The notes below the pieces were generated by a model. The model ran no database searches, was not told where the DNA came from, and was given only the letters and a program-made list of their open reading frames with translations. Below, one piece after another: positions 5,602-29,558 of a stretch of DNA of 29,607 nt. This DNA comes from a virus. The position numbers and the translations under genes were made by a program. The stretch is from the IMG/VR virus record IMGVR_UViG_3300045988_163197; one strand, given 5' to 3'. Position 1 is the first letter of the stretch. Each line of letters opens with the position of its first letter.

Positions 5602-5646
5602 AACTATTGAAAAACTATTGACAAACACGGGAATAGGGAGTATAAT
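5601..5646 (+). promoter_or_regulatory. early promoter, paralog of the one at 2112
   Basis: TTGACA (5618-5623), 17 nt spacer, TATAAT (5641-5646). The 17-mer TTGAAAAACTATTGACA at 5607-5623 is identical to 2101-2117. AAACTATTGA repeats at 11-bp spacing. Confidence 0.75.
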
Positions 5647-6099: not shown

Positions 6100-6100
6100 A

Positions 6101-10662: not shown

Positions 10663-11477
10663 CCGAAAGACAAATGCACGAACAGAGCGACGGGGTTTTG
10701 AACGAAACGACGAAGTTGCTGAATAAACAATACAACGTGGCGTATAAGGAAGCGAAAGATTATCTTGCGATTGAACTTGCAAAGGTTGAACTTTCGGGGA
10801 CGGCGCAACAAAGGTATAACGAATTGTTGAAATACGACCGCTTGGACAAAATATGTTCGGAAGTTGCGGATATTATCTTAAACGCAAACAAAACCACGAA
10901 GAAAGAAGTAAACAATCTTGCGGTTGCGGTGTACAAAATGAATTACGACTGGCAGGCTGACAAATTGGGGCTTGACGGCGTAAACAAGACCGAGAGCAAG
11001 GAAGCATACGAAGAAGTGGATATGTTCGATGTGATAGCATTAGCGGCGTTGACAGACAAAGATGTTATAGAACGTGATGTGAAGTCGAAGATTGTGCAGG
11101 CGGTGATGAGCAAGGCGGGCGTTCGTCCTATCATTACAGCGGTGAAAAACGTTGCGGAAAAGAACTTGTCGGACAGTGTGAGAATAGCGACCACGGCGAC
11201 CACGCAAACGGAAAACAAAGGACGAGCCGATGTTGTGGAAGTCGCAAAGAAACAAGGACGGAAATTCCGCAAAGTATGGCGTGCAGTCGGGGACAATCGG
11301 ACAAGGCAGGCACATAGAGCGGCAAGCGGACAAGTGCAGGACTTTGACAAGCCTTTTATTGTTGGCGGTGAAAAATTGATGTACCCTGCTGATATAAGTT
11401 TGGGTGCAAGCGCAAAGAATACAATTAACTGTCGTTGCAGAATGGCGGTTATTGAATATGACGGGCAAACGTCGTAA
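10659..11477 (+). CDS. head morphogenesis / minor capsid protein (SPP1 gp7 / Mu F-like)
   Basis: WRAVGDNRTRQAHRAASGQ ... NCRCRM is the signature of the gp7/MuF domain. Confidence 0.85.
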   Translation: MTERQMHEQSDGVLNETTKLLNKQYNVAYKEAKDYLAIELAKVELSGTAQQRYNELLKYDRLDKICSEVADIILNANKTTKKEVNNLAVAVYKMNYDWQADKLGLDGVNKTESKEAYEEVDMFDVIALAALTDKDVIERDVKSKIVQAVMSKAGVRPIITAVKNVAEKNLSDSVRIATTATTQTENKGRADVVEVAKKQGRKFRKVWRAVGDNRTRQAHRAASGQVQDFDKPFIVGGEKLMYPADISLGASAKNTINCRCRMAVIEYDGQTS

Positions 11478-11540
11478 AAAATAGCAAATAAAAATAATTT
11501 TATGAGATGCAACCTCGTTAAAAGCGTAAAAGGAGTTTTT

Positions 11541-12101
11541 ATGAAGAGAGCAGAAATCGAAAAGTTATTCGACGGCAAATTGGCAGAAGGTGTTGAAGTC
11601 AAAGAAATCATCGACGCGATTATGAAAATCAACGGCGACGATGTAAACCTTGCGAAAGAAAGCGCGGTAAAGGCAAGCAATGCAAGCATTGAAGAAATCA
11701 AAGCACAGGCTATTGCAGAAGCCTTGAAGCCTTACGAGAAAGGCGGGGAAAAGTATTTTGATACGGAAGCCTATCAAAAGGTTTTGGACGAAAACAAAGC
11801 CTATAAAGAGCGTGAAACAAAGCAAGCGAGAACGAGCGCGGTTGAAAAGTTGTTGAAAGACGGCAAATTCGACACAAGGGTTTTAAGCCTGCTTTCAAAA
11901 GCGGTTGACGATTATCAGCCGAAATGGAACGAGAATAACGAAATCGAGAACGCTCCCGAAATCTTAAAGGCACTTCAAAGCAATTATCCCGACTTTGTTG
12001 TTACCGAAACGGACGGCGGGTTTAAGCCTGCTACACCGCCTGCAAAAGGAAAGGCAGATACAGAAGTAGATGCTTTCGTTGCGGGTTTCAAAAAAGGATA
12101 A
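11541..12101 (+). CDS. scaffolding protein (start trimmed from 11502)
   Basis: AAAGGAG before ATG 11541. Charged, helical, K/E-rich 186 aa, immediately upstream of the capsid gene. Confidence 0.65.
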   Translation: MKRAEIEKLFDGKLAEGVEVKEIIDAIMKINGDDVNLAKESAVKASNASIEEIKAQAIAEALKPYEKGGEKYFDTEAYQKVLDENKAYKERETKQARTSAVEKLLKDGKFDTRVLSLLSKAVDDYQPKWNENNEIENAPEILKALQSNYPDFVVTETDGGFKPATPPAKGKADTEVDAFVAGFKKG

Positions 12102-13751: not shown

Positions 13752-14134
13752 ACAATCGAGATATTATGGCGTACAATGTGCTTGTAATGGCGTTAAAATC
13801 GGTGTGTCCGTATAGAACGGGAAACCTTGAACGAAACGGCATACGAGTTAAAATAGACAATGGCACAATGTGCGTTGTGGTTGGACACGAAACGAGTAAA
13901 CTTTTGGGCGAATATGCGGTTTATACAAACGAGCCGTGGATAAGCCCGAAATGGGGCGGAAAGCAAAACCCAAATCAAGGTTGGATAGAACGGGGCATTG
14001 AAAAGGCTTTGCCGCTTATAAGGCAAGTTTATTCGGGAATGACAATAGATGATTTTAATGACCTTATGGACGATTTACAAAAACAAACGGCAACGAGGCA
14101 AGCGGAGATAAGGAGAAAGCGGAAGAATGTTTGA
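13748..14134 (+). CDS. neck / tail-completion protein, HK97 gp10-like
   Basis: PYRTGNLERNGI and EYAVYTNE resemble gp10-family motifs. Position fits. Confidence 0.45.
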   Translation: MNNRDIMAYNVLVMALKSVCPYRTGNLERNGIRVKIDNGTMCVVVGHETSKLLGEYAVYTNEPWISPKWGGKQNPNQGWIERGIEKALPLIRQVYSGMTIDDFNDLMDDLQKQTATRQAEIRRKRKNV

Positions 14135-14981
14135 AGATTTGTTTTTACAGTTTATAGAAAAGGAGTTTTCCGATAGTCTGTCGGAAACGGTGAATGTTAC
14201 GAATGATTTGAGCGTCGTGTACGAACAGGAAGTAGATGCGGCGCAAGACTTATATTTCGAGCCGTTCAAGAAAAACCCGAAAGCGGTCGTGATTGTGTTG
14301 TCCACAACGAACGCAAGTCAAACGAACATCCCGCAAGTGTCGTTCACGACGGAGCAGATGTCGATTAAGATACTTTGCAACGAAAACCAAAAACACGATA
14401 TATATAAGGCGATTGACGAGTTTACGAATAAATACAACGCCGTTTATTCGGTGTTGGCAGGCGATACGAAGTCGTACAATATGCAGTTGAACATAAACAA
14501 GCCTTTTGTGGCGGGAATGTATGATATTCCGACGGAAAGCATAGATGACGACGGATGCACGGAGACTTTCGGATATATCACGATACAATGGTTTATCACG
14601 GCAATTTACAGTGATAACATTAAACTCGGCACGGACGAACTCAAAATCAAGGTAGGAACGACAGAATATCCGATTAAAGGACTGTACAGATACACTTTCT
14701 CGGAAAACCCGAACTCGGTCATATACCAAAAAGAGGGGCAGATAAGAGCAACGCACGAAGATGCGGTTTTAACGACCACTTATATCTTTAACTTTCAGTG
14801 TCTCGACGGCGACACGTTGAGTGAGTTATTAGATAGGTCTTTTAACGGCAAAACGGGCGGTATTTACGGTCAAACGCTGTCTTTGGTTATAGACGGTCAA
14901 ACGGTCGAAATGAGCGATTATACGCTTGAAAAGGCGTACGAAAACGGCGTTAAAAGTTACACGCTGACTTTGGTGAAATAA
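14127..14981 (+). CDS. tail structural protein (tube- or adaptor-like)
   Basis: 284 aa, beta-rich sequence, between the neck genes and the large tail protein. Confidence 0.45.
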   Translation: MFEDLFLQFIEKEFSDSLSETVNVTNDLSVVYEQEVDAAQDLYFEPFKKNPKAVVIVLSTTNASQTNIPQVSFTTEQMSIKILCNENQKHDIYKAIDEFTNKYNAVYSVLAGDTKSYNMQLNINKPFVAGMYDIPTESIDDDGCTETFGYITIQWFITAIYSDNIKLGTDELKIKVGTTEYPIKGLYRYTFSENPNSVIYQKEGQIRATHEDAVLTTTYIFNFQCLDGDTLSELLDRSFNGKTGGIYGQTLSLVIDGQTVEMSDYTLEKAYENGVKSYTLTLVK

Positions 14982-15409
14982 TGAGTAAAGAATATCATAT
15001 CTATCTTGACCACAATATAGCGGTTGACGGCGAACAAACTGGCGGGCAGTTGTCCGAAACTTCGTCGCCTGAAAAAAGTGCTAAAAAACAACAGTCGGAA
15101 GCGAAAACGGGAGCGACCGCAAAACTCGTCGGAGTGTACATCGGAAAGCAAGCCTTTCAGTGGGCAACATCGAATTACGGGAATTTGACGGGCGATTATT
15201 TGGGGCAAGCGTGGATAAGCGAGAGCATAGAGTTTGCGGGGCTTGTCGGCGGTATTTTGGCTAAACCCGTACTCGGGAGCGTGATTGCGGCGGCGGTCAT
15301 CGCTAAAAAGGCAACGGATAAATATATCGAACGCACGAAAGCAAATCAAGAAGCGATGCAATTAAGAGAACGCACGGGCAGTCTTTTGAGTAGTGGGGGC
15401 AGGCGATGA
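14981..15409 (+). CDS. small Gly/Ala-rich hydrophobic tail-internal protein (in the tape-measure position)
   Basis: 142 aa. FAGLVGGILAKPVLGSVIAAAVIA segment. ATGA-type coupling on both sides. Confidence 0.4.
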   Translation: MSKEYHIYLDHNIAVDGEQTGGQLSETSSPEKSAKKQQSEAKTGATAKLVGVYIGKQAFQWATSNYGNLTGDYLGQAWISESIEFAGLVGGILAKPVLGSVIAAAVIAKKATDKYIERTKANQEAMQLRERTGSLLSSGGRR

Positions 15410-18024
15410 AATTAAAAATCTTTTCACTCGGTATCATAAAAGAATATACGCCGTTGGCTGGCGGGGTGATGAATTGGGTTGCCGACGACACTTTGGATAG
15501 CGCGACTTTCCGCATTGTTTCGGACACTTCTACACCGTTCGAGAACACGGCGGTTGCAACGATTGTTTTTGAAAAGGGCGACGGAACGGAGATTGAAAGC
15601 ATTAAAATGCTTGTCGGCGCGGACAATGTCGAGCCTTTTGCGAAAGGTGCGGGCAAGTATGTCCATAACCTTATGCTTGTCGAATTGACAAAAATCCTTG
15701 AAAAGTTTACAAATTTACATTATATATCTACAATGGACACGCAGTTGTCAACGCAAATCGACACCGCGTTTGAAAACCTTAACACCTTGATATATGGTAA
15801 ATATATCGACTTTCTTGTGTCTCCGACAACATTTCCGTATATGCTCCAACAAGACGACTTGTTGAAGTCGGAAAATAGCCCGTTTTACGGGTTGCCTGCG
15901 GAAGATTATATCAACGAAAACGCAACAGCAAGAGAGATATTAGACGGGCTTTTCAGCACGGTAAACGCACGGGCGGTCGTTACGGATATAACGAATAATT
16001 ATATAATTAAAGTCGGGGTTATGGATATGAACAAGACCACCGACAAGACGGAAGTTGCAAATAGACTTGGAACTTTTTGGCAAAATAATATAGACAATTT
16101 TTGCGGCAAGGTCGTGTCGAAAGTGAGCAACGCAACGCCGCAATCGTATGTATTTGTAATTGACAGTTTCAAGTCTTTATTGAACACGGCAACAACGAAT
16201 AATAAGGTTGTGGCAACGGCTTTTAATGTCGAATATTTTGCTGACTTTTCTTTGTTGCCAAACGAAGATAGGCAAATCAATGTCAAATACACAAAGGGCG
16301 ATGTTTCGTATAATAAATATGTTACAATACCCTATCCCACGCCGCTTCCGTTGATTGGAAGTAAAGACTTTTCGGGAGCATCGCAAGACTTGCTTGTCGA
16401 TAAGGAATTTTGGGACGCTTTGGATAGCGACGCGGCAAGTTATACGAACTATGTTAAAGACAACACGCTGTATTATGAGCGCGGTGCGGCATCGGTAGAT
16501 GTGTCGAGAACATATAAGGACTTGTTCTTTACGCAAAGCGTTTTCGAGATGACGGCGAAAAAAGCAATGTTCAGATACATTGACCTTAACAGAGTTGCGT
16601 TATTGGGCGATGCCGATTGTCAAATCACGGGAATGGAAACCTCGGAAAACTTTTGGGGCATTGGCGATTTTATCTATACCGCGAAATACGCGCCGTTGGT
16701 TGATGACGTTATAATCGAAGCGAACAAGACCAAAAAGCAAAACGATAGAAACGCGGTATTTTCTATCACGGACGGACAGTCGGACAACATTATCGACTTG
16801 TCGAGGTACGGGCGTAATTTAGTCGGTAAGGCGCAAAGAATAGGCAATGACGAACTTTCTATCGACACGAATGTTTACGGGCGCGAAGATGTGTTAGAGC
16901 CGTTAGATAAGGTCGGTGATTACATCGTTTATAAGACCGAAATGCAAATAATGAGCAAGGCACATTATAGCGATACGGAAGATAAGAATTGGTATAAAGT
17001 GCGCTATTCGATGACGAAAGGCTTTAACAATCTTGCGGAAAAAATCGGGCTGGCGCGAGAAAAAAGGATATACCAAATCCCGCTTACGGGTTATCGTTCA
17101 ACCTTGCCGATAAGGTCGAGCATTGCATACGGCTTGCAAGGGAACTTTACATTGTTGCAAGACGGCGAAAACAACGAGCAAAAAAAGACTTTGAGTGCAT
17201 TCTTGTTGCAACGGCTTGTGAACACCTTTCCGTCGGATATGTACAATGCGATACTAATGAATGTTGTGGTTATGAATTATCACTATGTTCTGCCCGTGGT
17301 AGGCTTTGGCGCGGGAAACACAATGAACTTTATCGGGCGGTTTTATGACAATTACAGCGCGGGTTTATCGTTCGTGGCACAGCGCAACATATTCAAGTGG
17401 ATAGGCGGAAACAAAGCGTGCCAAAACCCGTATGTCAACAATGCGGGCGTTGCATTTGGTTTCTTTGATATATCAATCGGGAATATCCCCGCGCTTGATA
17501 GCGATAACATCAAAAAGCGTCCTGCGGTCGGTGCAAACGAAACCTTTTGGGGCTTTGGGAAAAGCGATATAAGTTACACAAAAGACCGCGCCGAGAGCAT
17601 AACATTGCAGAAAATCTATTCGTTGGTTGAAGACAATAAATTTACGGGGTACAAAAAAATGCGTATCGGAGAAGCGTTGATTAGAGATAACTACGCTTTT
17701 GAAGTTGAGAATAGACCGAAACTGAAATTGTACAAAGATTGTCCCGCAAAATATCTTGACGGCAACGCGCAGACTTTCAAGACTTCCGAGGGAACTTTGG
17801 TAGGTGAGACACAAGATTATCTTGAAGTAAAATATTGGAGTTATCAAGATATAAATGGCGGTTATTTAGTTGTAAAAAACGACAACACGGAGTATAATAA
17901 TTGTATAATCGCAGACGACAACGGAAACATTTATCTTGTTGCCGAAAAGTTAAGCAAAAAGGACGGGGAGATTGTCCCGACCACGAAACATTATGCGTGC
18001 GTAGCACTGTATGACGAACAATAA
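15406..18024 (+). CDS. large tail/baseplate hub protein, 872 aa
   Basis: Position between the tail genes and the fibre gene. No enzymatic motif recognised. Confidence 0.55.
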   Translation: MKLKIFSLGIIKEYTPLAGGVMNWVADDTLDSATFRIVSDTSTPFENTAVATIVFEKGDGTEIESIKMLVGADNVEPFAKGAGKYVHNLMLVELTKILEKFTNLHYISTMDTQLSTQIDTAFENLNTLIYGKYIDFLVSPTTFPYMLQQDDLLKSENSPFYGLPAEDYINENATAREILDGLFSTVNARAVVTDITNNYIIKVGVMDMNKTTDKTEVANRLGTFWQNNIDNFCGKVVSKVSNATPQSYVFVIDSFKSLLNTATTNNKVVATAFNVEYFADFSLLPNEDRQINVKYTKGDVSYNKYVTIPYPTPLPLIGSKDFSGASQDLLVDKEFWDALDSDAASYTNYVKDNTLYYERGAASVDVSRTYKDLFFTQSVFEMTAKKAMFRYIDLNRVALLGDADCQITGMETSENFWGIGDFIYTAKYAPLVDDVIIEANKTKKQNDRNAVFSITDGQSDNIIDLSRYGRNLVGKAQRIGNDELSIDTNVYGREDVLEPLDKVGDYIVYKTEMQIMSKAHYSDTEDKNWYKVRYSMTKGFNNLAEKIGLAREKRIYQIPLTGYRSTLPIRSSIAYGLQGNFTLLQDGENNEQKKTLSAFLLQRLVNTFPSDMYNAILMNVVVMNYHYVLPVVGFGAGNTMNFIGRFYDNYSAGLSFVAQRNIFKWIGGNKACQNPYVNNAGVAFGFFDISIGNIPALDSDNIKKRPAVGANETFWGFGKSDISYTKDRAESITLQKIYSLVEDNKFTGYKKMRIGEALIRDNYAFEVENRPKLKLYKDCPAKYLDGNAQTFKTSEGTLVGETQDYLEVKYWSYQDINGGYLVVKNDNTEYNNCIIADDNGNIYLVAEKLSKKDGEIVPTTKHYACVALYDEQ

Positions 18025-18044
18025 AACAAGGAGCAAAAAAGCGT

Positions 18045-21000
18045 ATGAAAGTTTACTTGAACAAAGAATACAAATGCGTTAAAGTGGAAGATAATACTTT
18101 TGTTGCGAACGACAGTAGCAATTACATAAGATATTATTTTGTAACGAACGCAAACGGCGATGTTATCGACAAAATGGACGATACGAGCGTTATCTATCGC
18201 AACACCGAGCCGAGTTATGTAACGGTGGCGTTTAGGCGTGCGGACGGCGACGTCATCCAACACCTTATGGCAAGTCCGAAAACCGATGCGACGGGAAAAA
18301 GTTTCTTTGAGTACGAAATCACGAACACAGACGGTGTTTTGTACAAAAAAGGCGCGTTGGAAATTTCCGCACAATTTATCGAAGCGACCTTATCGGAAAC
18401 GGGCGGCGTGAAAAAGGTTATCAGTCAAAAGGTCAAAGCGATTGCGATAAACACTGCTCACGTTTTGGATAATATCGGCGAAGAAGCGGAAGAGTATTAT
18501 TCGCAATACGAACAAGCGAACAACGACGCACACGCCGTTTTGCAAACGCAAATAACGACGAACTTTAATAACATCGGCACTTTGCAAGACCTTACGACCG
18601 ATGCCAAAGACGACCTTGTTAAGGCGATAAACGAAGTCGATGCACACGCTGATGCGAACAAGTCTGAAATAGGCGACCTTTCCACTCTTACCACTGACGA
18701 AAAGACCACTATCGTGGGCGCAATCAACGAAGTGGATGCACACGCCGATGCGAATAAAGCCGAAATAGGCAATCTTTCTGCGCTTACCACGGACGAAAAG
18801 GCTACGCTTGTGGGTGCAATCAATGAAGTGGATAATCACGCGGACAACGCCACAACTTTGGCAAACAATGCTGTCGCAACGGCTAACGGTGCAGTCGCCA
18901 CGGCAAACGAAGCGAAGACCACCGCGCAGACCGCCGAAACGAACGCTAATAGTGCGGTAGATACTGCAAACGCCGCAAACGCGACCGCAGACGAAGCAAA
19001 GGCTATCGCGCAAGGAAGTCAACGGGCAATAGGTTTTGCGACTTTACAAGCGGCAATAACGGCGTTAAACGGGTATAGCAACACGCAACTTAAAGTGGGC
19101 GATAATGTCTATATTGTGGAAACGGGAGTGCCTGATTTATGGGTTGCGGCGGTTGAGCCGAACAGTGTGGCTTATAACTACACGACGAACGACGCGTTCA
19201 ACGATGACCTTGTGGAAAATACCCTTGTGCAAGTCGGGTATTACAAGTTTGCGTATCTCGAAAGCGACGGAAAACCTTGCACGGTTGCGTGGCAGAATAT
19301 GACTGTTGCTGAAAGCGATTGGGTTGCGAGTACGGAGTTTGCGGACTTCCCGTATGAAGCGAAGATTATTCTTACGGATTTTGTAAACTTTTCATCTATT
19401 CCGCAAGTGGTGTTCGGACTGACCGAAGCGACGAGCGGGAACTATGCGCCTATTTGTAAAGCGGGCGACAAAGGGGTTTACATTTACAGCAAAGTCAATA
19501 CTGCTATCACGCTCCCGACAGTCGTTACTTTTGCGCCGAATGTACACGGGGCGAGTATGCAAGGCGGCGGCTACACGAACAAAGGTAAATGGGTTGCAAG
19601 CACGACCTATGCAATCGACGACCTTGTTTACACCGACAACGGACAGTTTGTGTGTATCGAAGGTATCACTTCGACGACTTCTCCCGAACAAGACACTACG
19701 CATTGGCAAGCGACTTTTGTTGCGACAGGAAAGACGAAAAACGGGCTTACAATCAGCGGACAAGACAACGGAACGGGAGTGCAAAAGACTTTTGACGGCT
19801 CGCAAGCGGTTGAAGTGGCGTTCGATGAAACCACGATGACGGCGAAAGAAGTCAACGGTGTTTTGAAAGTTGGTGCGAAAGGTACTATCCCCGAAGCGTT
19901 ACCGCAAGAAGCGAGTGCGTTGAAGAGCGGGGAGTTGCCGACAAGCGGGTGGGATACGAATACACCGTTTTTTGAGGGCGAATTAAATTTGCCTTATGGT
20001 GATAACTCGGAAATTAAAATTTGTGACGGGGATTATCGAGCCGTAAAAGTTGACTTAACCGTTACCGCAAAAGCGACAACGAATTATGAGGCAGGAGAAA
20101 ATATATCAACAGTTACTAAAACAAAAAACAGCGGTAGTGCGTCAGTACTTGTTACGTTTTCTTTCTCGTCGTCTCGCTCAAACGACGCACAGTTTATGTT
20201 TAAGGAAGATGGAATATATGTAAAACTATTTAATTCGCCATATACATCTTACGGGTGTAGGCTTACGCTTCTAAAAGCACAGGCTCCACAAGTCGGGGGA
20301 ACACCTTGCTACACTATCTCCGACACTTCCATAACCGCCAACAGCGATATTCTTATGGAACTCACCGACGAGGGCGGAGTAAAGTCCTATTCAATGGAAG
20401 CGGGCAAGATAACCGTTATCCGCGACACCGCACCGACACAGCCTATCCCGTACACCTACAAGGTAAAACAGACCAACGCAAGCGGGCAGTTTACGCTGGT
20501 AAACCATTATGTACCGAGCATACCTGAAAGCCCGACGAGTTTGCCCGTTACTTATAAGAAAGTGAGCGGAGAGTTACCGACGAGTGGGTGGGAAAATGAA
20601 GTTAGGAGTGCCGACTTATGGAACGGTAGTGTAAACGTCGGTGGTTATGGCGGTTCCCCAGCTTATAATGTTCCTGCATCTGCGGAACAAGACCTAAAAA
20701 ACATTGTTTACCACAAAACAGGACGATTATATCTTTACACTGATGACGGAAAGGAATTTGTTTGCACATACTCGGAGTCTGCTTCTACATCATCGGAATA
20801 TACGTACACTGGCATCACGGATGGGATAAAAATGGGAATATCAACCAACGTTGATGCCTCACCTCTTACGATTTCCGCGAGAAACTTAGATAGTGCTAAC
20901 CATACGGTTGTCGCTATGTCCACATACAAACTTGTATCGGGTAATAAAACCTTTACTATCTCCGACACCGATATAACCGCAAACACTTCTGTCAAAATGT

Positions 21001-22040
21001 ACTTAACGGACGAGGGCGGTGTAAAGGCTTATAGCAAAGCAGTGGGCAGTATTCAGGTTATCCGCGATAGCGTGCCGACAACTGCTATTCCTTACGAATA
21101 CGAAGTTGAACAAACGAGTGCAGAAGGGCTTTTTGAGGTCATAAATGCTTATGTACCTACCAAAACAAGTCAACTCACGAACGATAGCGGGTTTGCGAAA
21201 ACGACAGAGGCAAATACTTGGACGGGCGTGCAGACTTTCAGCAATGCCGACGGCATAAAGACCGACCGAGTACATAACCTTGACAATAATGACGCGTGGT
21301 ACAATTTCGACGGGTCGAATAATAGGTTTGGCAGCCCTTCAAGACCAACGATTATTAGGACGAGTGAAGCAAGACCGAGAGCGCAAGTTCCGAGCGGCGA
21401 AACAACGGTAACGAAAGCGATTGCGTTGTTGGAAGATATACCGAGTGCAAGTCAACTCATGAACGATAGCGGGTTTGCGAAAACGACAGAGGCAAATACT
21501 TGGACGGGCGTGCAGACTTTCAGCAATGCCGACGGCATAAAGACCGACCGAGTACATAACCTTGACAATAATGACGCGTGGTACAATTTCGACGGGTCGA
21601 ATAATAGGTTTGGCAGCCCTTCAAGACCAACGATTATTAGGACGAGTGAAGCAAGACCGAGAGCGCAAGTTCCGAGCGGCAAAACAACGGTAACGAAAGC
21701 GATTGCGTTGTTGGAAGATATACCGAGTGCTGGCGAATGGGTAACCGTAACGGGTGAAACAGCGACCTTAACGGAAGCGGGGACTTATCAAGTATTGTTC
21801 GGCGCAAGTTATAGGGTGCAATCAATCATATATTGGGACGGCACAAATGGCGCAGACGGCATATATTCGACCGTGGCAACGGCGGTATCAAATAACAGAA
21901 TATCTATTACTTCTCGATACCCGAGTGTTACCGCTGGCGGCGTGTTGTCGATATATTTCGCTACTGTAACAGCAGACAACGGAGTATGGACAGAAGAAAC
22001 GACAGCGCAATCAGGCTTCAAATACCGTAAAATAAACTAA
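18045..22040 (+). CDS. tail fibre / receptor-binding protein, 1331 aa
   Basis: LTTDxKxxLVGAINEVD repeats, an Ala/Thr/Asn-rich coiled segment, an NTWTGVQTF-type fibre motif, a CBM5/12-like segment, and internal duplications. Confidence 0.85.
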   Translation: MKVYLNKEYKCVKVEDNTFVANDSSNYIRYYFVTNANGDVIDKMDDTSVIYRNTEPSYVTVAFRRADGDVIQHLMASPKTDATGKSFFEYEITNTDGVLYKKGALEISAQFIEATLSETGGVKKVISQKVKAIAINTAHVLDNIGEEAEEYYSQYEQANNDAHAVLQTQITTNFNNIGTLQDLTTDAKDDLVKAINEVDAHADANKSEIGDLSTLTTDEKTTIVGAINEVDAHADANKAEIGNLSALTTDEKATLVGAINEVDNHADNATTLANNAVATANGAVATANEAKTTAQTAETNANSAVDTANAANATADEAKAIAQGSQRAIGFATLQAAITALNGYSNTQLKVGDNVYIVETGVPDLWVAAVEPNSVAYNYTTNDAFNDDLVENTLVQVGYYKFAYLESDGKPCTVAWQNMTVAESDWVASTEFADFPYEAKIILTDFVNFSSIPQVVFGLTEATSGNYAPICKAGDKGVYIYSKVNTAITLPTVVTFAPNVHGASMQGGGYTNKGKWVASTTYAIDDLVYTDNGQFVCIEGITSTTSPEQDTTHWQATFVATGKTKNGLTISGQDNGTGVQKTFDGSQAVEVAFDETTMTAKEVNGVLKVGAKGTIPEALPQEASALKSGELPTSGWDTNTPFFEGELNLPYGDNSEIKICDGDYRAVKVDLTVTAKATTNYEAGENISTVTKTKNSGSASVLVTFSFSSSRSNDAQFMFKEDGIYVKLFNSPYTSYGCRLTLLKAQAPQVGGTPCYTISDTSITANSDILMELTDEGGVKSYSMEAGKITVIRDTAPTQPIPYTYKVKQTNASGQFTLVNHYVPSIPESPTSLPVTYKKVSGELPTSGWENEVRSADLWNGSVNVGGYGGSPAYNVPASAEQDLKNIVYHKTGRLYLYTDDGKEFVCTYSESASTSSEYTYTGITDGIKMGISTNVDASPLTISARNLDSANHTVVAMSTYKLVSGNKTFTISDTDITANTSVKMYLTDEGGVKAYSKAVGSIQVIRDSVPTTAIPYEYEVEQTSAEGLFEVINAYVPTKTSQLTNDSGFAKTTEANTWTGVQTFSNADGIKTDRVHNLDNNDAWYNFDGSNNRFGSPSRPTIIRTSEARPRAQVPSGETTVTKAIALLEDIPSASQLMNDSGFAKTTEANTWTGVQTFSNADGIKTDRVHNLDNNDAWYNFDGSNNRFGSPSRPTIIRTSEARPRAQVPSGKTTVTKAIALLEDIPSAGEWVTVTGETATLTEAGTYQVLFGASYRVQSIIYWDGTNGADGIYSTVATAVSNNRISITSRYPSVTAGGVLSIYFATVTADNGVWTEETTAQSGFKYRKIN
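18579..18866 (+). repeat. three tandem 96-bp (32-aa) coding repeats
   Basis: Units start at 18579, 18675 and 18771: (D/N)LS(T/A)LTTDEK(T/A)T(I/L)VGAINEVD(A/N)HAD. Confidence 0.85.
21171..21730 (+). repeat. near-perfect 282-bp tandem duplication inside the fibre gene
   Basis: Copy 1 is 21171-21452 and copy 2 is 21453-21730. I saw only two differences: C/T at 21178 vs 21460 (Thr/Met), and one G/A substitution in GGCGAAACA vs GGCAAAACA (Glu/Lys). Confidence 0.9.
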
Positions 22041-22053
22041 AAGGAGATAAACT

Positions 22054-23295
22054 ATGTACGGAATAAGTAACAGTCAACAACAAGGTGGGGGCGGCGGTAG
22101 TGCCGCTTCCTACAAGGCTATAAAATCAACGCTTACACCGAGCGATTGGCAGGAAGTAGCAGGTGCAACGCCGTATTTTATAGGCGAAAACGCTATGCAA
22201 TGGACGGTGAACGGCGATGGCGACTACGAAAAATCTCAAACAACAAAACTCGGACTTGTAGCAGGCAATAGTTATACGATAACTGCTGTTTGCGATGGAC
22301 AAACTTACACGCAAACGGCGGTCGCAGCAGGTGACGAAGCAAACGGAATAGCAATAAGTTATGACCTTCATCCCCAAGTTTCTATGTTTGTTGATATTTA
22401 TGATGATAATACGGGTTCAAAATGTGTTATATATGTTGAGGCAACAAGTTTCGTCATTACAAAATTCGAGGGCGAAGGTTTCGGTTCAGGTTGCAGAGCA
22501 ACCATATCCGACAGTGCAATCAAAGTCAATTCAGCAGTCACATTATATACAAACACAAGTGAGAAAATCGCCGTCGGAGAAAAAACGAATGGCAATGTAA
22601 CATTGATAGCCGATAGTATTCCTGTAACTTCTATACCTTACAGCCTTGAAATTGTCGGCACAGACACGGAAGGACTTTTTGAACTTATAAACGGATATAT
22701 CCCGCCGACGATAGAAGTGCCGACAGCACTGCCTCAAAAAACAAGTGCGATTAAAACTGGGACTTTGCCAAAAGGAGGGTCGCGTGTTGAGATAACTGAC
22801 AGCGAAATTACTGCGACAAGCGATATTGTAGTCGATGTCTCGTATAAGAAAAAGGTTACTGGCGGACTTGCTCCTGGGATGTTAGCACTTGTTTTAAGCA
22901 ACGGCGAAGTAGCAGATGAAGACATTTCGTTCGAGTATAAAATTAAACAAACAGACGGAGAAGGTCAATTCACGGTAGTGAACAGTTACATCCCTCAACA
23001 AATACTACCATTAGAAAAGAACGTAACAAACGAAAGCACCTCATTGGGACAAAAAGTTGTAACAATTACTGGTACCGCGAAACCGTATTTGTTTACCGTA
23101 AAAGACAGTGATGTATCTGCATCAGTTTTTGTTCGTCTTTATCCTGCCGACGAAAACACTGAAACCTGGCTTAATGAACATACTTTATCAAGTATAATTA
23201 CAGAAGAAAGTCATCAATTCACTTTTAAGGTAGATACAAATACATTGCCGACCACTTTTAGTATAAAATATATTATCGAAACCCTTACAAAGTAA
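22054..23295 (+). CDS. second tail fibre / receptor-binding protein, 413 aa
   Basis: Shares the linker motif and the ~70-aa module with the 1331-aa fibre. AAAGGAG RBS. Confidence 0.75.
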   Translation: MYGISNSQQQGGGGGSAASYKAIKSTLTPSDWQEVAGATPYFIGENAMQWTVNGDGDYEKSQTTKLGLVAGNSYTITAVCDGQTYTQTAVAAGDEANGIAISYDLHPQVSMFVDIYDDNTGSKCVIYVEATSFVITKFEGEGFGSGCRATISDSAIKVNSAVTLYTNTSEKIAVGEKTNGNVTLIADSIPVTSIPYSLEIVGTDTEGLFELINGYIPPTIEVPTALPQKTSAIKTGTLPKGGSRVEITDSEITATSDIVVDVSYKKKVTGGLAPGMLALVLSNGEVADEDISFEYKIKQTDGEGQFTVVNSYIPQQILPLEKNVTNESTSLGQKVVTITGTAKPYLFTVKDSDVSASVFVRLYPADENTETWLNEHTLSSIITEESHQFTFKVDTNTLPTTFSIKYIIETLTK

Positions 23296-23310
23296 GAATA
23301 GGAGACTGTT

Positions 23311-23463
23311 ATGGGATATGTGGAACTTAAAACAGGGCAAGTGGCGTTAAGACCAGCGGGAGATTTAAGTAGCCGATATACGATTGTATGGGAAGGTGCA
23401 GAACAAACAGGTACCGACTGGCAGTATAAGGCATTACCAGACGGAGGGTATTATTGTAGTTGA
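23311..23463 (+). CDS. 50-aa ORF ending at TGA 23461. The same frame stays open to 23799.
   Basis: AGGAG 6 nt before ATG 23311. My own translation: MGYVELKTGQVALRPAGDLSSRYTIVWEGAEQTGTDWQYKALPDGGYYCS*. Confidence 0.6.
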   Translation: MGYVELKTGQVALRPAGDLSSRYTIVWEGAEQTGTDWQYKALPDGGYYCS

Positions 23464-23484
23464 CTATGGTATATAACTCCCTCA

Positions 23485-23799
23485 GTGCCGTTTAACACTG
23501 CTGATACACTTGTTCTTAATACTGATAAGATAACTAATGATACGCCTTTGTATACTGTCGTACAACAGAGTGATTATCTTGACTTAGGAGACGATGCGTT
23601 AAGTAGAATTTTTGCAAACGTTACAAAAGTATGGAGACATACAACAACATCTGGTTCTGGGGAAACGCCTAACGTAACAACGTGGGAAGTGTGGCTGTTT
23701 AATAATGGGAAATTTGGACTTTTTGGATACCAGAAAGAAGCTGGATATGTCTACGGTTATCCAGTATGGATAGAAAAATTATGGAAAAACAAGGAGTAA
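23485..23799 (+). CDS. 104-aa ORF-track ORF, probably the continuation of 23311-23463 rather than an independent gene
   Basis: Begins at a GTG with no RBS and contains no ATG codon. It is in the same frame as the upstream ORF, and the codons between them (LWYITPS) are open. Confidence 0.4.
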   Translation: MPFNTADTLVLNTDKITNDTPLYTVVQQSDYLDLGDDALSRIFANVTKVWRHTTTSGSGETPNVTTWEVWLFNNGKFGLFGYQKEAGYVYGYPVWIEKLWKNKE

Positions 23800-23802
23800 A
23801 TT

Positions 23803-24036
23803 ATGGAAGAAAAAATCTTACTTATCGGCAAACTAATACAAGAGGGTATCGAGGGCGAAGCGGAAGCGTTAAAAGACTACAACCGAGAACTCGCGGAAAT
23901 CTATGCCCTTGACGCGGAAACGGGCGACAAATGTGCTCCTGTCATTGCGGAAATCATATCCGACGAACTCAATCATATCGCTAAACTTACGGCATTGTAC
24001 ACCGAACTTACGGGCATTGCCGAGAACAAGGAGTAA
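23803..24036 (+). CDS. 77-aa helical protein with a ferritin-like E...Y...ExxH pattern
   Basis: AAGGAG RBS. GEAEALKDY ... ISDELNHIAKL. The gene call is solid; the function is tentative. Confidence 0.7.
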   Translation: MEEKILLIGKLIQEGIEGEAEALKDYNRELAEIYALDAETGDKCAPVIAEIISDELNHIAKLTALYTELTGIAENKE

Positions 24037-24038
24037 TT

Positions 24039-24512
24039 ATGGAACTGAACATTAAACTTATCGGAAACATCGGACGGCTGAACAAGAGAGAGCCTTTTAT
24101 TTTGGCAGACAATGAAAAACTTGTCCTTAACTTTTCCTGCGCCACGCCTTTGACAGATTATTATATCGAACTCAAAAACGGCGACAAATCGGCAAAATAC
24201 AGGCTTTCTTCGGTATCTTCCTATGAAGTGCCGAACGAACTCTTGCAGGCGGGTACACTTGAAGTTACGGTCAGCCTTTTATATTGCGGAAAAATCGTCG
24301 TTACCTACACCGTCGAGCCTATCGTCATTGCTCTTATAGACAACGGCTACAAGGGCTTTGCGGAACTCGACGAAGTAAAGGCGAAATACGACCTTCTTAT
24401 GGCGAACTACAACGAACTTGTCAGCAAGATAAATCAGGTTATCGACACCGCGAACAGACAACAGGAAGATATCCAAAAACTGTACAACGCGGTTGAACAA
24501 GGCGAATTTTAA
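24039..24512 (+). CDS. hypothetical 157-aa protein, beta-rich N-terminus plus C-terminal coiled coil
   Basis: AAGGAG RBS. Heptad-like C-terminus ELDEVKAKYDLLMANYNELVSKINQVIDTANRQQEDIQKLYN. Confidence 0.7.
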   Translation: MELNIKLIGNIGRLNKREPFILADNEKLVLNFSCATPLTDYYIELKNGDKSAKYRLSSVSSYEVPNELLQAGTLEVTVSLLYCGKIVVTYTVEPIVIALIDNGYKGFAELDEVKAKYDLLMANYNELVSKINQVIDTANRQQEDIQKLYNAVEQGEF

Positions 24513-24579
24513 GCGTGCTACCGCTCAAAAATCTAACTGCTCTCGTCGGGTAGCAACGGCACGGGCAAAGGAGTAATTT

Positions 24580-25101
24580 ATGGTAACTTTATCACTTACA
24601 GCAGAACAAATCGACCAACTTCGCAACATCGCGGCAGTCGGCGGCAAATGGCTTATGGCGGCTTTCACTGCACTCGGCGGACTTGCGGGCATCGCAAAAA
24701 TCATCACGACTTTTGTGGCAAGGAAGAAACCCGTCAAACTCAATCAATCAGACTACGAAGCAATCGCAAACGCTATCGTCGATAAAACCAACGGCAGTAT
24801 CGAAATCAATATGTCGTCCGAAATCGACAAGGCAACGCGTAACAGACTTGCGGAAGTCGAAAAAGTCAACGGCGAACTTGTCAAGGCTTGCAAGCAACTT
24901 GTAAAATCGCAAAAAGCAATAGCCAACGCTGTTTCGGACTTCAAAACTATATCTACATCGGCGCGCGACGAACTCAAAGCAAGTATGAATGACCTTGCGG
25001 ACGGCGAAAACGGGCTTGTGGCGGTCGAAACACCGAAAGTCGATAAACCTATCGTCAAAATAGAAAAAGTGGCAGAAAACGAAAATACGCCCTTGTATTA
25101 A
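24580..25101 (+). CDS. single-pass membrane protein with a long helical tail, 173 aa
   Basis: AAAGGAG RBS. TM segment WLMAAFTALGGLAGIAKIITTFV. Confidence 0.7.
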   Translation: MVTLSLTAEQIDQLRNIAAVGGKWLMAAFTALGGLAGIAKIITTFVARKKPVKLNQSDYEAIANAIVDKTNGSIEINMSSEIDKATRNRLAEVEKVNGELVKACKQLVKSQKAIANAVSDFKTISTSARDELKASMNDLADGENGLVAVETPKVDKPIVKIEKVAENENTPLY

Positions 25102-25113
25102 GGGGGTGAGAGT

Positions 25114-25620
25114 ATGAAACGAAACCCGAAAACCATAATGTCGGCTATAATGGAGTACATTGTGCTTATTGCGCCGACTGCGGGATATGCTATTTACTCG
25201 TACACGGACACTCTGCAATACACGATGAGCGCGAACTCCAAAGGCTTCTTTTGGACTTTGATTAGCCTTGCTATTCTTTGCGCTATAATCTACGGCATTT
25301 TTAAGAGCAGATACGACGAGTATCTTAAAGGGTATTACCAACACAAAGCGGACTTAAAGGTCGCGGATAATCCGTCGGAACTGTTAGTCAAGACCGTGGC
25401 AAAGGAAGAAAAGGTCGTATCAAATATAACCTACATTCCGATTATGTTCTATCTTCTTATGGCGTTGGCTGTACTCTCGGCGTTCCGCGATGCAATCGAA
25501 AAACTTGAACTCATTATCGAAATCATTGCGGCGAGCGTGTTCGGCAAAATGTGCTTGCATTGTCTTACCACTCATTTAAGGGAAGTCGCAACCATAAAAA
25601 AGGACGGTGAGACCGAATGA
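25114..25620 (+). CDS. polytopic membrane protein, 168 aa (about 4 hydrophobic helices)
   Basis: GGGGGTGAG RBS. Hydrophobic stretches at roughly aa 9-29, 45-63, 105-124 and 132-150. Confidence 0.7.
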   Translation: MKRNPKTIMSAIMEYIVLIAPTAGYAIYSYTDTLQYTMSANSKGFFWTLISLAILCAIIYGIFKSRYDEYLKGYYQHKADLKVADNPSELLVKTVAKEEKVVSNITYIPIMFYLLMALAVLSAFRDAIEKLELIIEIIAASVFGKMCLHCLTTHLREVATIKKDGETE

Positions 25621-26657
25621 GTAGTGAGAAAAAGAGAGTAGTGCTGGTTGGCAGTCGAATAACGATTAACGCGGCAATATCGTTGTGTATCACGGCGGCG
25701 TTGATTTTATCGAGTTTTTTCATCTTCAAGGGTATCGAAACGCAAGTATCGGGCAAGGACTTTTGGATACAAAAATCGGTTATGGCTGTCGCAACATTCT
25801 TGTTGATGTTTTCCATTGCGAACGTTACCGAAAACATAATGCTTGCAAAAGACAAGGATATAAACGACCGTCTGAACGCGTTAGACACGCACTATCAAAC
25901 AATAATGGCGAACTACGAAACCGCCGACTTGGAAACCTACATCGAAAACTTGAACAAAGCAAACAAGTATAAGAATTATATCCACAAGTGGAAAAAGAAA
26001 CTTCGTTTTGCAAGTAGGTTTAAGAAATGGGGAACTCCGAAAAGGCTTGAACGCATAAACAAAGCGTTGACCGTTACGGCAGAAGAACTGTGGGAAAGCG
26101 GACAAAAAGTCAAGTATCACAAGATAACTTTCAGCCAAATGGTGAGTGGAGCGAACGATGTTTCACCGAACGATGACGAGAGCGATTTAAGGTCGCACAA
26201 AGCCCGTTACGGCGCACAAAAGTTCGGCTGGAAGATTTTATCGCTCGTTGCGTTTGGAGCGTTCTCGGGGCAATTATTGTACTCGTGGCAAGACTTCAAC
26301 AAGGGTATGATTATTCCGCTTATCTTTCAGTGCGTAACGATTTTAATCTCTATCTATTCGGGGATATGCTTCGGATGCGCGATGAACGAGAGAACGAAAC
26401 AGACCTTAAAGCGCAAGTTAAAGATATTCTCGCAATTCAGGTACAAGATGAACAACAAGGTTGACGGCGTTGCGAACTTGGGCGTTGAAGTAATCAAAGA
26501 CCTTGAAGTCGAAAGAGCAAAAGAGAAGTCGAATAACCCGTTAAAGCGTACTTTTGATGACACCTTTGGGAGCGGACAGCCCGTTAAAGCGGGAGCGTTC
26601 GTCGGAAAACTCATCTCGTCAACGATTGATATTGAAGCGGAAAAACTTGCTAACTAA
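25617..26657 (+). CDS. membrane protein, 346 aa: 2 TM, basic loop, 2 TM, soluble tail
   Basis: ATGA coupling. TM-like stretches ITINAAISLCITAALILSSFFIF, SVMAVATFLLMFSIANV, FGWKILSLVAFGAFSGQLLY and MIIPLIFQCVTILISIYSGICFGCA. Loop KWKKKLRFASRFKKWGTPKR. Confidence 0.7.
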   Translation: MSSEKKRVVLVGSRITINAAISLCITAALILSSFFIFKGIETQVSGKDFWIQKSVMAVATFLLMFSIANVTENIMLAKDKDINDRLNALDTHYQTIMANYETADLETYIENLNKANKYKNYIHKWKKKLRFASRFKKWGTPKRLERINKALTVTAEELWESGQKVKYHKITFSQMVSGANDVSPNDDESDLRSHKARYGAQKFGWKILSLVAFGAFSGQLLYSWQDFNKGMIIPLIFQCVTILISIYSGICFGCAMNERTKQTLKRKLKIFSQFRYKMNNKVDGVANLGVEVIKDLEVERAKEKSNNPLKRTFDDTFGSGQPVKAGAFVGKLISSTIDIEAEKLAN

Positions 26658-26666
26658 AAGACAAAA

Positions 26667-26698
26667 CCCTCGGCATTTCGTCGGGGGCTTTGTTTCTT
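26667..26698. terminator. bidirectional intrinsic terminator between the late operon and the minus-strand gene
   Basis: Hairpin CCCTCGGC-ATTTC-GTCGGGGG (8 bp, two G-U pairs). T-rich on the + side (CTTTGTTTCTT) and on the - side (TTTTGTCTTTT). Confidence 0.65.
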
Positions 26699-26759
26699 AT
26701 AGGAGTGTAAAAATGATGTCAGTCGTTCGTGTTACGACAATGGTATTATAGCATACTGA

Positions 26760-26924
26760 TTAAGGCTTGTCAATACCAAACCACACTTTTTTTGCGTTTT
26801 CGGGCAATTTATCAGGGGCGGCGGGCTTTATGTGTTCAAAAGAACTCTCCGTCGATTGCAGGGCTTGTTTTATTTCTTCGATTTTTTGTTTGTCCGTAAC
26901 GACCACGTTTTCAAATTCGTTCAT
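26760..26924 (-). CDS. 54-aa protein, the only minus-strand gene, apparently leaderless
   Basis: ORF-track 26760-27044 trimmed to the internal Met (MNEFENVVVTDKQKIEEIKQ...). TATAAT ends 6 nt before this ATG and there is no SD. Confidence 0.5.
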   Translation of the reverse strand: MNEFENVVVTDKQKIEEIKQALQSTESSFEHIKPAAPDKLPENAKKVWFGIDKP

Positions 26925-26930
26925 AATTTC

Positions 26931-26959
26931 ATTATAGCAAAAAAAATTAAAAAACGCAA
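26931..26959 (-). promoter_or_regulatory. minus-strand promoter
   Basis: The minus strand reads TTGCGT (26959-26954), 17 nt spacer, TATAAT (26936-26931), GAAATT, then ATG. Confidence 0.55.
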
Positions 26960-26968
26960 CAAAAAGTA

Positions 26969-26997
26969 TTGACAAACGCAGAAAAGGGGTGTATGAT
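26969..26997 (+). promoter_or_regulatory. promoter of the replication/methylase operon
   Basis: TTGACA (26969-26974), 17 nt spacer, TATGAT (26992-26997). The extended box AAAAGTATTGACAAAC matches AAAACTATTGACAAAC at 5611-5626. Confidence 0.7.
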
Positions 26998-27066
26998 ATA
27001 AGAGTAATCGATATTTGGTGGGTGATGGCATTAAGTATCGGCAAACTGAATATCGGTTATCCATAA

Positions 27067-27118
27067 CCGCTTAAACAACCCTATCCATCACATTAAGGGA
27101 AGTTTAAGTGGTTTTTTT
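27067..27118 (+). terminator. terminator-like hairpin plus T7 inside the 5' leader of the replication operon (candidate attenuator)
   Basis: CCGCTTAAAC (27067-27076) pairs with GTTTAAGTGG (27102-27111). Inner CCCT pairs with AGGG. TTTTTTT at 27112-27118. Confidence 0.6.
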
Positions 27119-28847: not shown

Positions 28848-29558
28848 ATGATAGAAATTGACAAGGTATATAATATGGACTGCCTTGACCTTATGCGAGA
28901 AATGGCAAATAATGGGGTGCTTGTTGACGGTATAATAACAGACCCGCCATATTTAATTGATTATAAAACAGGGCGGAGACAAGACAAAGACGACAAATTT
29001 TGCAAGGCGATTATCGGTGATAGCGACGAGCAACTTATTACCGACTACATAAAATTATGTTACGACATAATGAAAGATAACACGGCAATTTATTGTTTTT
29101 GCAATGCTGACAAGATAGACGTTTTTAAGCGTGAAATAGATAAATATTTCACAATAAAAAATATCATAATATGGGTTAAGAATAATTGGACGGCGGGCGA
29201 CCTTGAAGCGCAAATGGGAAAACAGTATGAGATGTGTATTTATGCAAACAAAGGACGAGCGTGTTTTAATGATAACTTAAAAAGACCTACGGATATATGG
29301 TATTGCAATCGTGTTTCAGGAAATGACCAGATACACCAAAATCAAAAACCACTTGACTTGATTTATAAAATGTTACAATTATCAACAAAAAAAGACGATA
29401 TAATTTTTGACGGATTTATGGGAAGTTTTACAACGGCGGTTGCTTGCCACAAAATGCAAAGGCACTTTATCGGCGCGGAACTTGACAAGGAATATTTTGC
29501 ACTCGGACAAAAGCGATTGCAAGAAGTACAAAATCAAATATCAATGTTTGACTTATAA
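28848..29558 (+). CDS. DNA N6-adenine / N4-cytosine methyltransferase (beta class)
   Basis: Catalytic IITDPPY comes before the AdoMet motif IIFDGFMGSFTT (order IV then I). Confidence 0.9.
   Translation: MIEIDKVYNMDCLDLMREMANNGVLVDGIITDPPYLIDYKTGRRQDKDDKFCKAIIGDSDEQLITDYIKLCYDIMKDNTAIYCFCNADKIDVFKREIDKYFTIKNIIIWVKNNWTAGDLEAQMGKQYEMCIYANKGRACFNDNLKRPTDIWYCNRVSGNDQIHQNQKPLDLIYKMLQLSTKKDDIIFDGFMGSFTTAVACHKMQRHFIGAELDKEYFALGQKRLQEVQNQISMFDL

Follow-up and report, generated by a model that had tools for sequence, protein, structure and literature searches.

A putative lysis module of three uncharacterised membrane proteins and a structured RNA leader in a phage lineage of gut Clostridia without a recognisable endolysin

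Introduction

All tailed phages are commonly taken to possess an endolysin, and endolysins serve as markers for annotation and host prediction and as antibacterial leads. Single-gene lysis, also known as the action of protein antibiotics, is achieved by binding and inhibition of MurA, MraY or MurJ. Among the lysis cassettes composed of several genes, that of PBSX starts with a beta-sandwich protein, continues with a helical protein of bitopic topology and a holin, and ends with an amidase (XepA-XhlA-XhlB-XlyA; PMC6834076). In the cassettes of actinophages (coryne- and mycobacteriophages), LysZ, a long-helix protein with one transmembrane segment (TM), and LysY, a protein with four TMs, accompany the holin and the endolysin LysA; LysZ consists of an N-terminal segment, one TM, a long helical body, a flexible linker rich in Pro and, at the C-terminus, a helix (bioRxiv 10.1101/2025.06.24.661397). 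For the release of pneumococcal phages, the review PMC12029793 (citing PMC2725628) describes that the host enzyme LytA cooperates with the phage lytic enzymes, a possible route being that the proton motive force collapses. The present study deals with the end of the late operon of the IMG/VR virus record IMGVR_UViG_3300045988_163197, a stretch of 29,607 nucleotides (nt) referred to as the window, where three consecutive membrane proteins of 173, 168 and 346 amino acids (aa) are encoded in the position of a lysis cassette. These three proteins are termed the trio in the following.

The trio probably represents a lysis module, as deduced from its position, its lineage-wide conservation, its contiguity with the late genes, its retention in a genome without integrase, its dedicated RNA leader and the absence of further conserved genes for membrane or lytic proteins. 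The complete reading proposed here, namely that this phage lineage lyses its hosts by a module of the trio, the RNA leader and a 77-aa protein encoded upstream, the wall being breached most likely by autolysins of the host, is assigned a probability of roughly 0.45. What is new at this locus is a candidate lysis cassette built from uncharacterised membrane-protein families that have no relatives in Pfam, PHROGs or the PDB. The trio defines three protein families without an entry in these databases, the family of the 346-aa protein alone comprising 87 clusters.

Results and Discussion

The cassette in comparison with described lysis systems

The late operon of the window closes with three genes followed by a terminator, in agreement with a preliminary description of this DNA:

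24580-25101, plus strand: 173-aa bitopic membrane protein (hydropathy, conservation)
25114-25620, plus strand: 168-aa protein with three to four TMs (hydropathy, alignment)
25617-26657, plus strand: 346-aa protein with four TMs (hydropathy, AlphaFold2 (AF2) model, profile search)

As in PBSX/SPP1-type cassettes, the genes are located at the end of the late operon behind the fibre genes, and the gene for a soluble beta-sandwich protein is followed by those for a helical membrane protein of the bitopic type and for a holin-type protein with several TMs. However, none of the proteins encoded here matches XepA, XhlA or XhlB in sequence or fold, they are two to four times larger, and the amidase XlyA has no counterpart, its place being occupied by the 346-aa protein with four TMs. 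The LysZ/LysY cassettes resemble the locus in that a protein featuring one TM, a long helix, a Pro-containing linker and a segment at the C-terminus is encoded next to a protein with four TMs (here the 173-aa and 168-aa proteins), in a lysis position beside the tail genes. In contrast to these cassettes, the gene order is reversed, the hosts belong to the Firmicutes instead of the Actinomycetota, and the helical body is predicted to be cytoplasmic; furthermore, LysA and a separate small holin are present there, whereas neither an endolysin nor a separate conserved small holin was found here. Both resemblances appear to be of outline only, LysZ/LysY having been compared by description and not by sequence. 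Regarding holins of the TcdE/Phage_holin_4 type (approximately 140-170 aa, three to four TMs), the 168-aa protein is similar in size, TM number and its charged C-terminus, but no Pfam holin family matched at E ≤ 0.05 and no endolysin gene is adjacent. The locus also differs from the canonical holin-endolysin cassette, since no peptidoglycan hydrolase gene was detected in it or near it.

Features of the three membrane proteins

Topologies were derived from family-averaged hydropathy, and sidedness from charge bias (positive-inside rule) only. In the 173-aa protein, a short acidic N-terminus is followed by one TM at approximately residues 17-43, a basic flank, a long body that is mostly helical and a short linker containing Pro, the C-terminal residue being an invariant Tyr; the single TM and the long helical tail reported previously were recovered. 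Its only match was a weak one to phrog_5962, a family of unknown function (E = 7e-4), and homologues with 24-37% identity hold the equivalent position in relatives.

The gene for the 168-aa protein begins 12 nt past the stop codon of the 173-aa gene and is provided with its own GGGGGTGAGAG ribosome-binding site. About four hydrophobic helices had been proposed for its product, three of which are clear TMs, the fourth (approximately 130-150) being weaker. This protein is the best-conserved member of the cassette: alignment A2 comprises sequences of 45-90% identity with 42 invariant columns, including a majority of those in TM1, in the first external loop and in TM2. The loop is nearly invariant (DTLQYTMSxxSKGxFWTLI), and the C-terminus is charged. 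Homologues with 42-57% identity were found in relatives whose tail genes are no longer recognisable, and no relative was detected in Pfam, PHROG, NCBIfam, PADLOC or PDB. The 168-aa protein may be regarded as the most holin-like member of the trio, the lethality of any membrane lesion being a prediction.

The start codon of the 346-aa gene (ATG at 25617) overlaps the stop codon of the 168-aa gene (TGA, 25618-25620), which corresponds to the ATGA coupling noted before. Likewise, the proposed layout of two TMs, a loop, two further TMs and a tail was reproduced, with TMs at 20-36, 54-70, 207-223 and 231-247, a central loop of 136 aa modelled as helices and a tail of 99 aa; the loop, described as strongly basic, proved to be moderately basic (family mean of Lys + Arg 25.6 vs. 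Asp + Glu 20.0). The AF2 model is all helical and of moderate confidence (predicted local distance difference test, pLDDT, 71). Comparison of this model with the PDB by Foldseek yielded generic long-helix matches only (E > 0.3), and in BFVD only uncharacterised phage proteins of approximately 300 aa were matched. Profile searches of the PDB with the 346-aa and 168-aa families gave nothing meaningful, and no Pfam holin family was found for any protein of the trio at E ≤ 0.05. A relationship between the 168-aa and 346-aa families was considered and rejected by hhalign comparison. Invariant polar residues of the 346-aa family are located in its soluble parts (E72, D79, H92, Y93, E101, D181, and D190).

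The charges fit the positive-inside rule provided that the 168-aa and 346-aa proteins have their N-termini inside the cell. On this basis, a cytoplasmic location is inferred for the helical body of the 173-aa protein as well as for the loop (136 aa) and the tail (99 aa) of the 346-aa protein. If this topology is right, no protein of the trio presents an enzyme-sized domain to the cell wall.

Use of the three proteins at infection, as virion-borne ejection or channel proteins comparable to those of short-tailed phages, appears extremely improbable. Their location in the late operon would suit this idea, as would a lineage without a long tape-measure gene, which may be short-tailed, and two insignificant BFVD matches to 'internal virion protein' (E of approximately 1) point in the same direction. 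The genes, however, follow the fibre genes instead of lying between head and tail genes, and packaging of the trio into the virion is not expected, because its strongly hydrophobic TMs (hydropathy > 2) would insert into the membrane of the producer cell.

Conservation of the cassette in related phages and prophages

The preliminary description had recommended checking the synteny of the trio in related genomes; up to 10 kb on each side of the cassette were examined in the relatives. Proteins related to the 346-aa protein range from 39% to 98% identity, and an exhaustive profile search yielded 87 clusters (50% identity) at E < 1e-3, mostly of 255-420 aa, besides shorter fragments. Among 61 members of this family, none matched PHROGs, and Pfam matches were scattered over one or two members each (E ≥ 1.6e-4). 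A match to Phage_holin_3_6 in one distant member of the 61 (E = 0.0098) was treated as noise. No match was obtained in 50,697 phage records, either by blastn of the region 22000-27100 or by tblastn of the 346-aa protein and the distant members P0086, P0098, P0106, and P0118, and a scan of viral contigs with P0098 gave no confirmed match.

In every relative that could be placed, the same gene order was observed: a protein of approximately 77 aa, sometimes one of approximately 150 aa (fibronectin type III (FN3)/coiled-coil), a protein of approximately 165-184 aa with one TM, one of approximately 165-180 aa with four TMs, and one of approximately 300-440 aa with four TMs. The late operon always ends with this order, which persists even where identity to the 346-aa protein has dropped to approximately 20%; in the most distant loci (L031-33, L038, and L040), the two middle genes were matched by size, position and TM number and not by sequence. 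Tail-fibre genes have diverged past recognition in relatives still carrying the trio in this order. The trio is among the few proteins of the lineage that are still detectably conserved in distant relatives, and is not a variable accessory element.

The lysis-cassette position claimed earlier is supported by the gene neighbourhood: the genes are the last of the late operon, behind the tail-fibre genes, and are followed by the terminator and, in temperate relatives, by the lysogeny module or the prophage edge. A tyrosine integrase directly follows the cassette in L019, a serine recombinase and an S24/CI repressor in L036, and host genes in L021 and L038. Prophage copies were found in Christensenella sp. 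UBA6880 and in metagenome-assembled genomes (MAGs) of uncultured Clostridia, adjoined by the host genes lgt and a DivIVA-like gene. Based on these prophage locations, the hosts are walled Firmicutes; a wall-less or archaeal host was rejected on the same grounds and in view of the DnaC-type loader. The lineage represents a broad group of uncharacterised phages and prophages of gut Clostridia, with Christensenellales-like hosts.

The same neighbourhood could be taken to indicate that the trio serves lysogenic conversion, superinfection exclusion or defence, for instance by modifying the envelope or as a membrane effector. Conversion genes such as gtrABC also sit at prophage ends, the prophage cassette adjoins an integrase or the edge of the attachment site, and in one relative (L036) a family 2 glycosyltransferase (GT2) gene lies immediately upstream. 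The likeness to 2-TM effectors, raised in the preliminary description, consists in paired TM helices with helical cytoplasmic extensions, as known from SLATT/2-TM defence effectors. However, Pfam gave no SLATT match, no sensor or nucleotide-signalling gene is linked, and the neighbours are virion and replication genes. The only PADLOC matches, none of them meaningful, concerned a cyclase (weak; E = 0.0017, 15 bits) and, for the 77-aa protein, a '2TM effector' (12 bits). Regarding serotype conversion by GtrABC (GtrA as a 4-TM flippase, a bactoprenol glycosyltransferase of the GT2 type, and GtrC with several TMs), neither a GtrA nor a GT2 match was found in the window. Moreover, the promoter scan revealed no promoter belonging to the trio itself, which shares the orientation of the late genes and is contiguous with them; the trio has been kept in a genome for which no integrase was found (Pfam, all open reading frames (ORFs)); and it is conserved across divergent relatives, unlike a variable accessory gene. 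A phage using the trio in this way would be left without lysis genes. Such a role is accordingly judged improbable, and the defence or exclusion effector considered previously is disfavoured by the PADLOC and Pfam results and by the conservation in distant relatives.

A conserved structured RNA leader precedes the trio

The candidate lysis module is preceded by the following element:

24511-24582, plus strand: conserved structured RNA leader (covariance model R1)

In it, hairpin P1 is joined by an A-rich linker to the two-part hairpin P3, behind which lie the ribosome-binding site and the start codon of the 173-aa gene, P3 ending 1-3 nt 5' of the ribosome-binding site AAAGGAG. Single-sequence folds contained both hairpins in most of 14 sequences and often added a pyrimidine stretch pairing with the ribosome-binding site; RNAalifold concurred with the P1 and P3 hairpins. 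One strong match each (at least 51 bits) to covariance model R1 was obtained in 31 of 43 sources, always immediately 5' of the 173-aa gene (the window, L018, L019, L022/L034, L023-L026, L028, L055, L058-L062, L064, and L065-L075). In 16 distinct sequences, 88.5% of cells were paired, compared to 72.4% in shuffles (0 of 500), and slid-partner controls reached 26-46%. Compensatory changes were present at nine of the 13 pairs. Furthermore, the P1 and P3 loops are perfectly complementary over 6-7 nt (Watson-Crick) in all ten of ten lineages, by means of nine different hexamers, whereas cross-lineage combinations of the loops gave a mean complementarity of 3.7 nt; this pairing was judged by self-versus-cross complementarity, loop lengths varying between lineages in the model alignment. 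The complementarity points to a kissing-loop or alternative pairing. No match was found at E < 0.6 when the region 24400-24700 was compared with 4,227 covariance models of Rfam.

Tight dosage control is usual for lysis genes. A covarying leader preceding the trio in at least ten lineages fits the dosage control expected of such genes and would mark the trio as a separately controlled translational unit within the late transcript. The leader constitutes a compact new cis-regulatory motif with strong covariation and offers a handle on lysis timing. Being lineage-wide and accompanied by this new RNA element, the observation is stronger than could be recognised in the preliminary description.

Search for a peptidoglycan hydrolase

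The statement that no endolysin is recognisable in the genome was based on reading approximately 55 products; approximately 46 ORFs were counted here, and the statement itself held in all scans. Searches of all 46 ORFs against Pfam (E ≤ 0.05) revealed no amidase, lysozyme, GH25, CHAP/NlpC-P60, M23, transglycosylase, VanY or other peptidoglycan-hydrolase family. Hydrolase families were equally missing among the results for PHROGs (all ORFs, E ≤ 0.01 or 0.001), NCBIfam (ten late ORFs, E ≤ 0.1) and Pfam with the ten longest alternative-frame ORFs (E ≤ 0.01), some ORFs having been scanned as concatenates, with a possible slight loss of sensitivity. In the examined parts of the related loci, neither precomputed nor newly run Pfam matches included a hydrolase family. 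This survey covered 20.5 of 28.3 kb of L034 (from the tail genes through the early genes to the terminase), L019, L036, L038, L040 and selected ORFs of the larger L065 group. Searching the 872-aa and 1331-aa proteins against the PDB by phmmer gave no sequence relative, and no free soluble endolysin gene was evident in the fully tiled genome. Recoding of a stop codon masking a gene was rejected, as the genome is tightly tiled by ORFs of the standard code.

Some small ORFs of the early region have a holin-like shape, namely two proteins with two TMs each (7050-7262, plus strand, 70 aa, and 1622-1888, plus strand, 88 aa). The first of these and an 87-aa lipoprotein (signal LGVFVGC; 7259-7522, plus strand) are encoded immediately ahead of the small terminase gene, an arrangement seen in lambda-type lysis cassettes. 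No homologue of the ORFs 1622-1888 and 7050-7262 was found in divergent loci spanning that region, and no comparable small membrane ORF was seen in L034 or L036; the small 2-TM and lipoprotein ORFs are therefore probably not core lysis genes. The lambda-like spot before the small terminase gene (6451-7522) was rejected as the site of the lysis genes, its 200-aa protein being an ASCH domain protein and the two small ORFs lacking homologues in divergent loci.

An undescribed muralytic family might be hidden in the 872-, 1331-, 413- or 284-aa proteins or in a cytoplasmic domain of the 346-aa protein, the trio then acting as a holin with LysY/LysZ-type accessories. Endolysins occur in almost all tailed phages of walled hosts, LysZ/LysY cassettes co-occur with LysA, approximately 3,000 residues of late proteins are without family or fold assignment, and the 346-aa family features invariant polar residues in its soluble parts. 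Against this stand the virion-structural positions of the large unassigned proteins, the lack of an evident free endolysin gene and of a hydrolase match in any relative examined, the all-helical 346-aa model without an enzyme-like fold match and with soluble parts predicted to be cytoplasmic, and the FN3-like fold of the 157-aa ORF. In sum, this explanation is unlikely, though by no means far-fetched. A widespread gut-phage lineage without detectable endolysin implies either a new class of wall-degrading enzymes or lysis by membrane proteins only, and either outcome would be new biology for the poorly studied, health-associated Christensenellales.

Possible mode of action

According to the proposed mechanism, the module would be transcribed as the last part of the late operon, and the leader RNA, in which a 3' helix borders on the ribosome-binding site, would throttle its translation. 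The trio would insert into the cytoplasmic membrane with its bulky helical domains inside the cell and, at a critical level, cause a lethal membrane lesion. The holin-type core in this step would most likely be the 168-aa protein, with the 173-aa and 346-aa proteins as its putative partners or regulators. The collapse of the membrane potential would then release host autolysins, which breach the wall. Autolysins of the host are favoured for the last step because the phage encodes no recognisable peptidoglycan hydrolase; almost the same likelihood is given to an undescribed muralytic domain within a virion protein, and less to a block of wall synthesis. The LytA-assisted release in Streptococcus pneumoniae offers a parallel, in that wall hydrolases of the host could be set free by a membrane lesion through which the proton motive force collapses (PMC2725628, as cited in PMC12029793). 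Pneumococcal phages, however, encode their own lysin, and none is detectable here.

A membrane protein of the module might instead bind MraY, MurJ, lipid II or the undecaprenyl carrier and thereby block wall synthesis. The bulky domains predicted to be cytoplasmic or membrane-embedded would suit such a role, as would the almost invariant TM1-TM2 region and first external loop of the 168-aa protein, which are what a specific contact with a protein or lipid would require, and the lack of a detected hydrolase. In addition, a possible lipid-carrier-dependent pore has been suggested by the authors of the LysZ study (bioRxiv 10.1101/2025.06.24.661397). The single-gene lysis proteins of single-stranded RNA and DNA phages (E, L, A2, and LysM) likewise achieve lysis by a membrane protein without a phage muralytic enzyme, but they are single small proteins of tiny genomes, whereas a module of three to four genes in a tailed double-stranded DNA phage is considered here. 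No tailed double-stranded DNA phage is known to lyse its host in this way, and three proteins exceed the needs of the mechanism. A block of wall synthesis is hence distinctly improbable.

Several points weigh against the proposed lysis module with host autolysins. No homology of the trio to any holin family was found, and its proteins are large for holins. Tailed phages that infect walled bacteria encode a muralytic enzyme in nearly all cases, which gives a true absence a low prior, and the virion proteins of 284, 872, 1331, and 413 aa, being without fold assignment, could hide a novel hydrolase. The prophage end beside the integrase also houses lysogenic-conversion genes. Finally, the topology was deduced from charge bias alone, the AF2 models are only moderate (pLDDT 69-71), and the function of the module is itself deduced from sequence.

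That the phage truly lacks a wall hydrolase of its own is regarded as somewhat doubtful. It is rather unlikely that a tailed double-stranded DNA lineage of walled gut Clostridia does without any peptidoglycan hydrolase, with a trio gated by a kissing-loop leader unleashing autolysins or blocking lipid-linked wall synthesis. If true, tailed phages of walled bacteria would thereby have their first described lysis strategy without an endolysin, the chance of which is realistic, albeit a minority one.

Genes located upstream of the trio

Two small genes precede the trio:

23803-24036, plus strand: 77-aa protein of two helices with the pattern of a ferritin-like metal site (E19, Y26, E55-x-x-H58)
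24039-24512, plus strand: 157-aa soluble protein with an FN3-like beta-sandwich (approximately 1-100) and a C-terminal coiled-coil helix (108-153)

Residues E19, A20, Y26, E50, D54, E55, and H58 are invariant in the family of the 77-aa protein (homologues at 35-49% identity), and the pattern represents a putative half-ferritin (encapsulated-ferritin-like) metal site. Weak matches were obtained to bacterioferritin and rubrerythrin in the PDB (E = 0.011-0.14) and to EncB of NCBIfam (E = 0.007). Homologues precede the trio in L022, L024, L025, L028, L034, L058 and the distant L031-33.

The AF2 model of the 157-aa protein (pLDDT 69.4), built on a shallow alignment, comprises seven to nine strands in a beta-sandwich followed by a helix of 45 residues. 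The 50 best Foldseek matches in the PDB were almost all fibronectin type III or related Ig-like beta-sandwiches, the top ones, all FN3 domains, with E of approximately 5e-3 and target-normalised TM scores of 0.5-0.7. Pfam and PDB profile searches returned coiled coils only, and no conserved Cys/His/Asp catalytic set was found in the family. The suggestion that this ORF conceals a peptidoglycan hydrolase was rejected in view of the FN3-like model, its PDB matches and the lack of plausible catalytic residues. The gene occurs in closer relatives only and is absent in L031 between the 75-aa and 163-aa genes.

Some relatives contain a reverse transcriptase gene (RVT_1) between the fibre genes and the cassette (L019, 7188-8264, and L036/L037), which is probably part of a diversity-generating retroelement, and a GT2 gene was located immediately 5' of the cassette in L036/L037 only; the window contains neither.

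4578-5633 and 5963-6982 (L036/L037): RVT_1 / GT2 regions

Genome organisation and further observations

The first and last 55 nt of the window are identical, and this terminal overlap confirms the circular closure noted previously, giving a closed circle of 29,552 bp. All credible genes are encoded on the plus strand. By means of Pfam and PHROGs, genes for replication (replisome organiser and DnaC-like loader), recombination (Erf and NinB), DNA methylation (two methyltransferases of the C5-cytosine and N6/N4 types) and the head (small and large terminase, SPP1-type portal, MuF-like protein, scaffold, and major capsid protein) were identified. Downstream of the head genes, a stretch of unassigned late proteins extends up to position 26657. 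The tail module (14127-23295, plus strand), none of whose proteins obtained a family assignment, is devoid of a long tape-measure gene and encodes three small connectors, a 284-aa protein and a glycine-rich hydrophobic protein of 142 aa, followed by proteins of 872, 1331, and 413 aa. This layout without a long tape measure recurs in distant relatives (L040 and L063), and the lineage may be short-tailed.

Further features of the genome are:

26667-26687, no strand assigned: late-operon terminator (GC-rich stem-loop with T-runs on both strands)
211-1305 and 28848-29558, plus strand: DNA methyltransferases (one C5-cytosine, one N6/N4), flanking the arbitrary contig junction

The terminator stem-loop probably also ends a short minus-strand transcript. 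Downstream of it, a sigma-70-like promoter (26969-26997, 11 of 12 positions matching) leads into the early and replication genes. A perfect sigma-70 promoter on the minus strand (26773-26745; TTGACA-17-TATAAT with TG) is aimed into the late-operon terminator, and both elements (26650-26773) predict an RNA of approximately 85 nt (z = -2.65). In this RNA, the single-stranded CACUCCUAUAA shows complementarity to the ribosome-binding sites TTATAAGGAGTG belonging to ORF 18-206 and to both methyltransferase genes (211 and 28848), and a TTATAAGGAGTGAAA ribosome-binding site is common to the two methyltransferase genes (211-1305 and 28848-29558), lying upstream of each. Finally, the Rfam motif GP20-b RNA was detected at 11459-11528 (plus strand; 42.1 bits vs. 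a gathering score of 36.2), just 5' of the scaffold gene (11502-12101).

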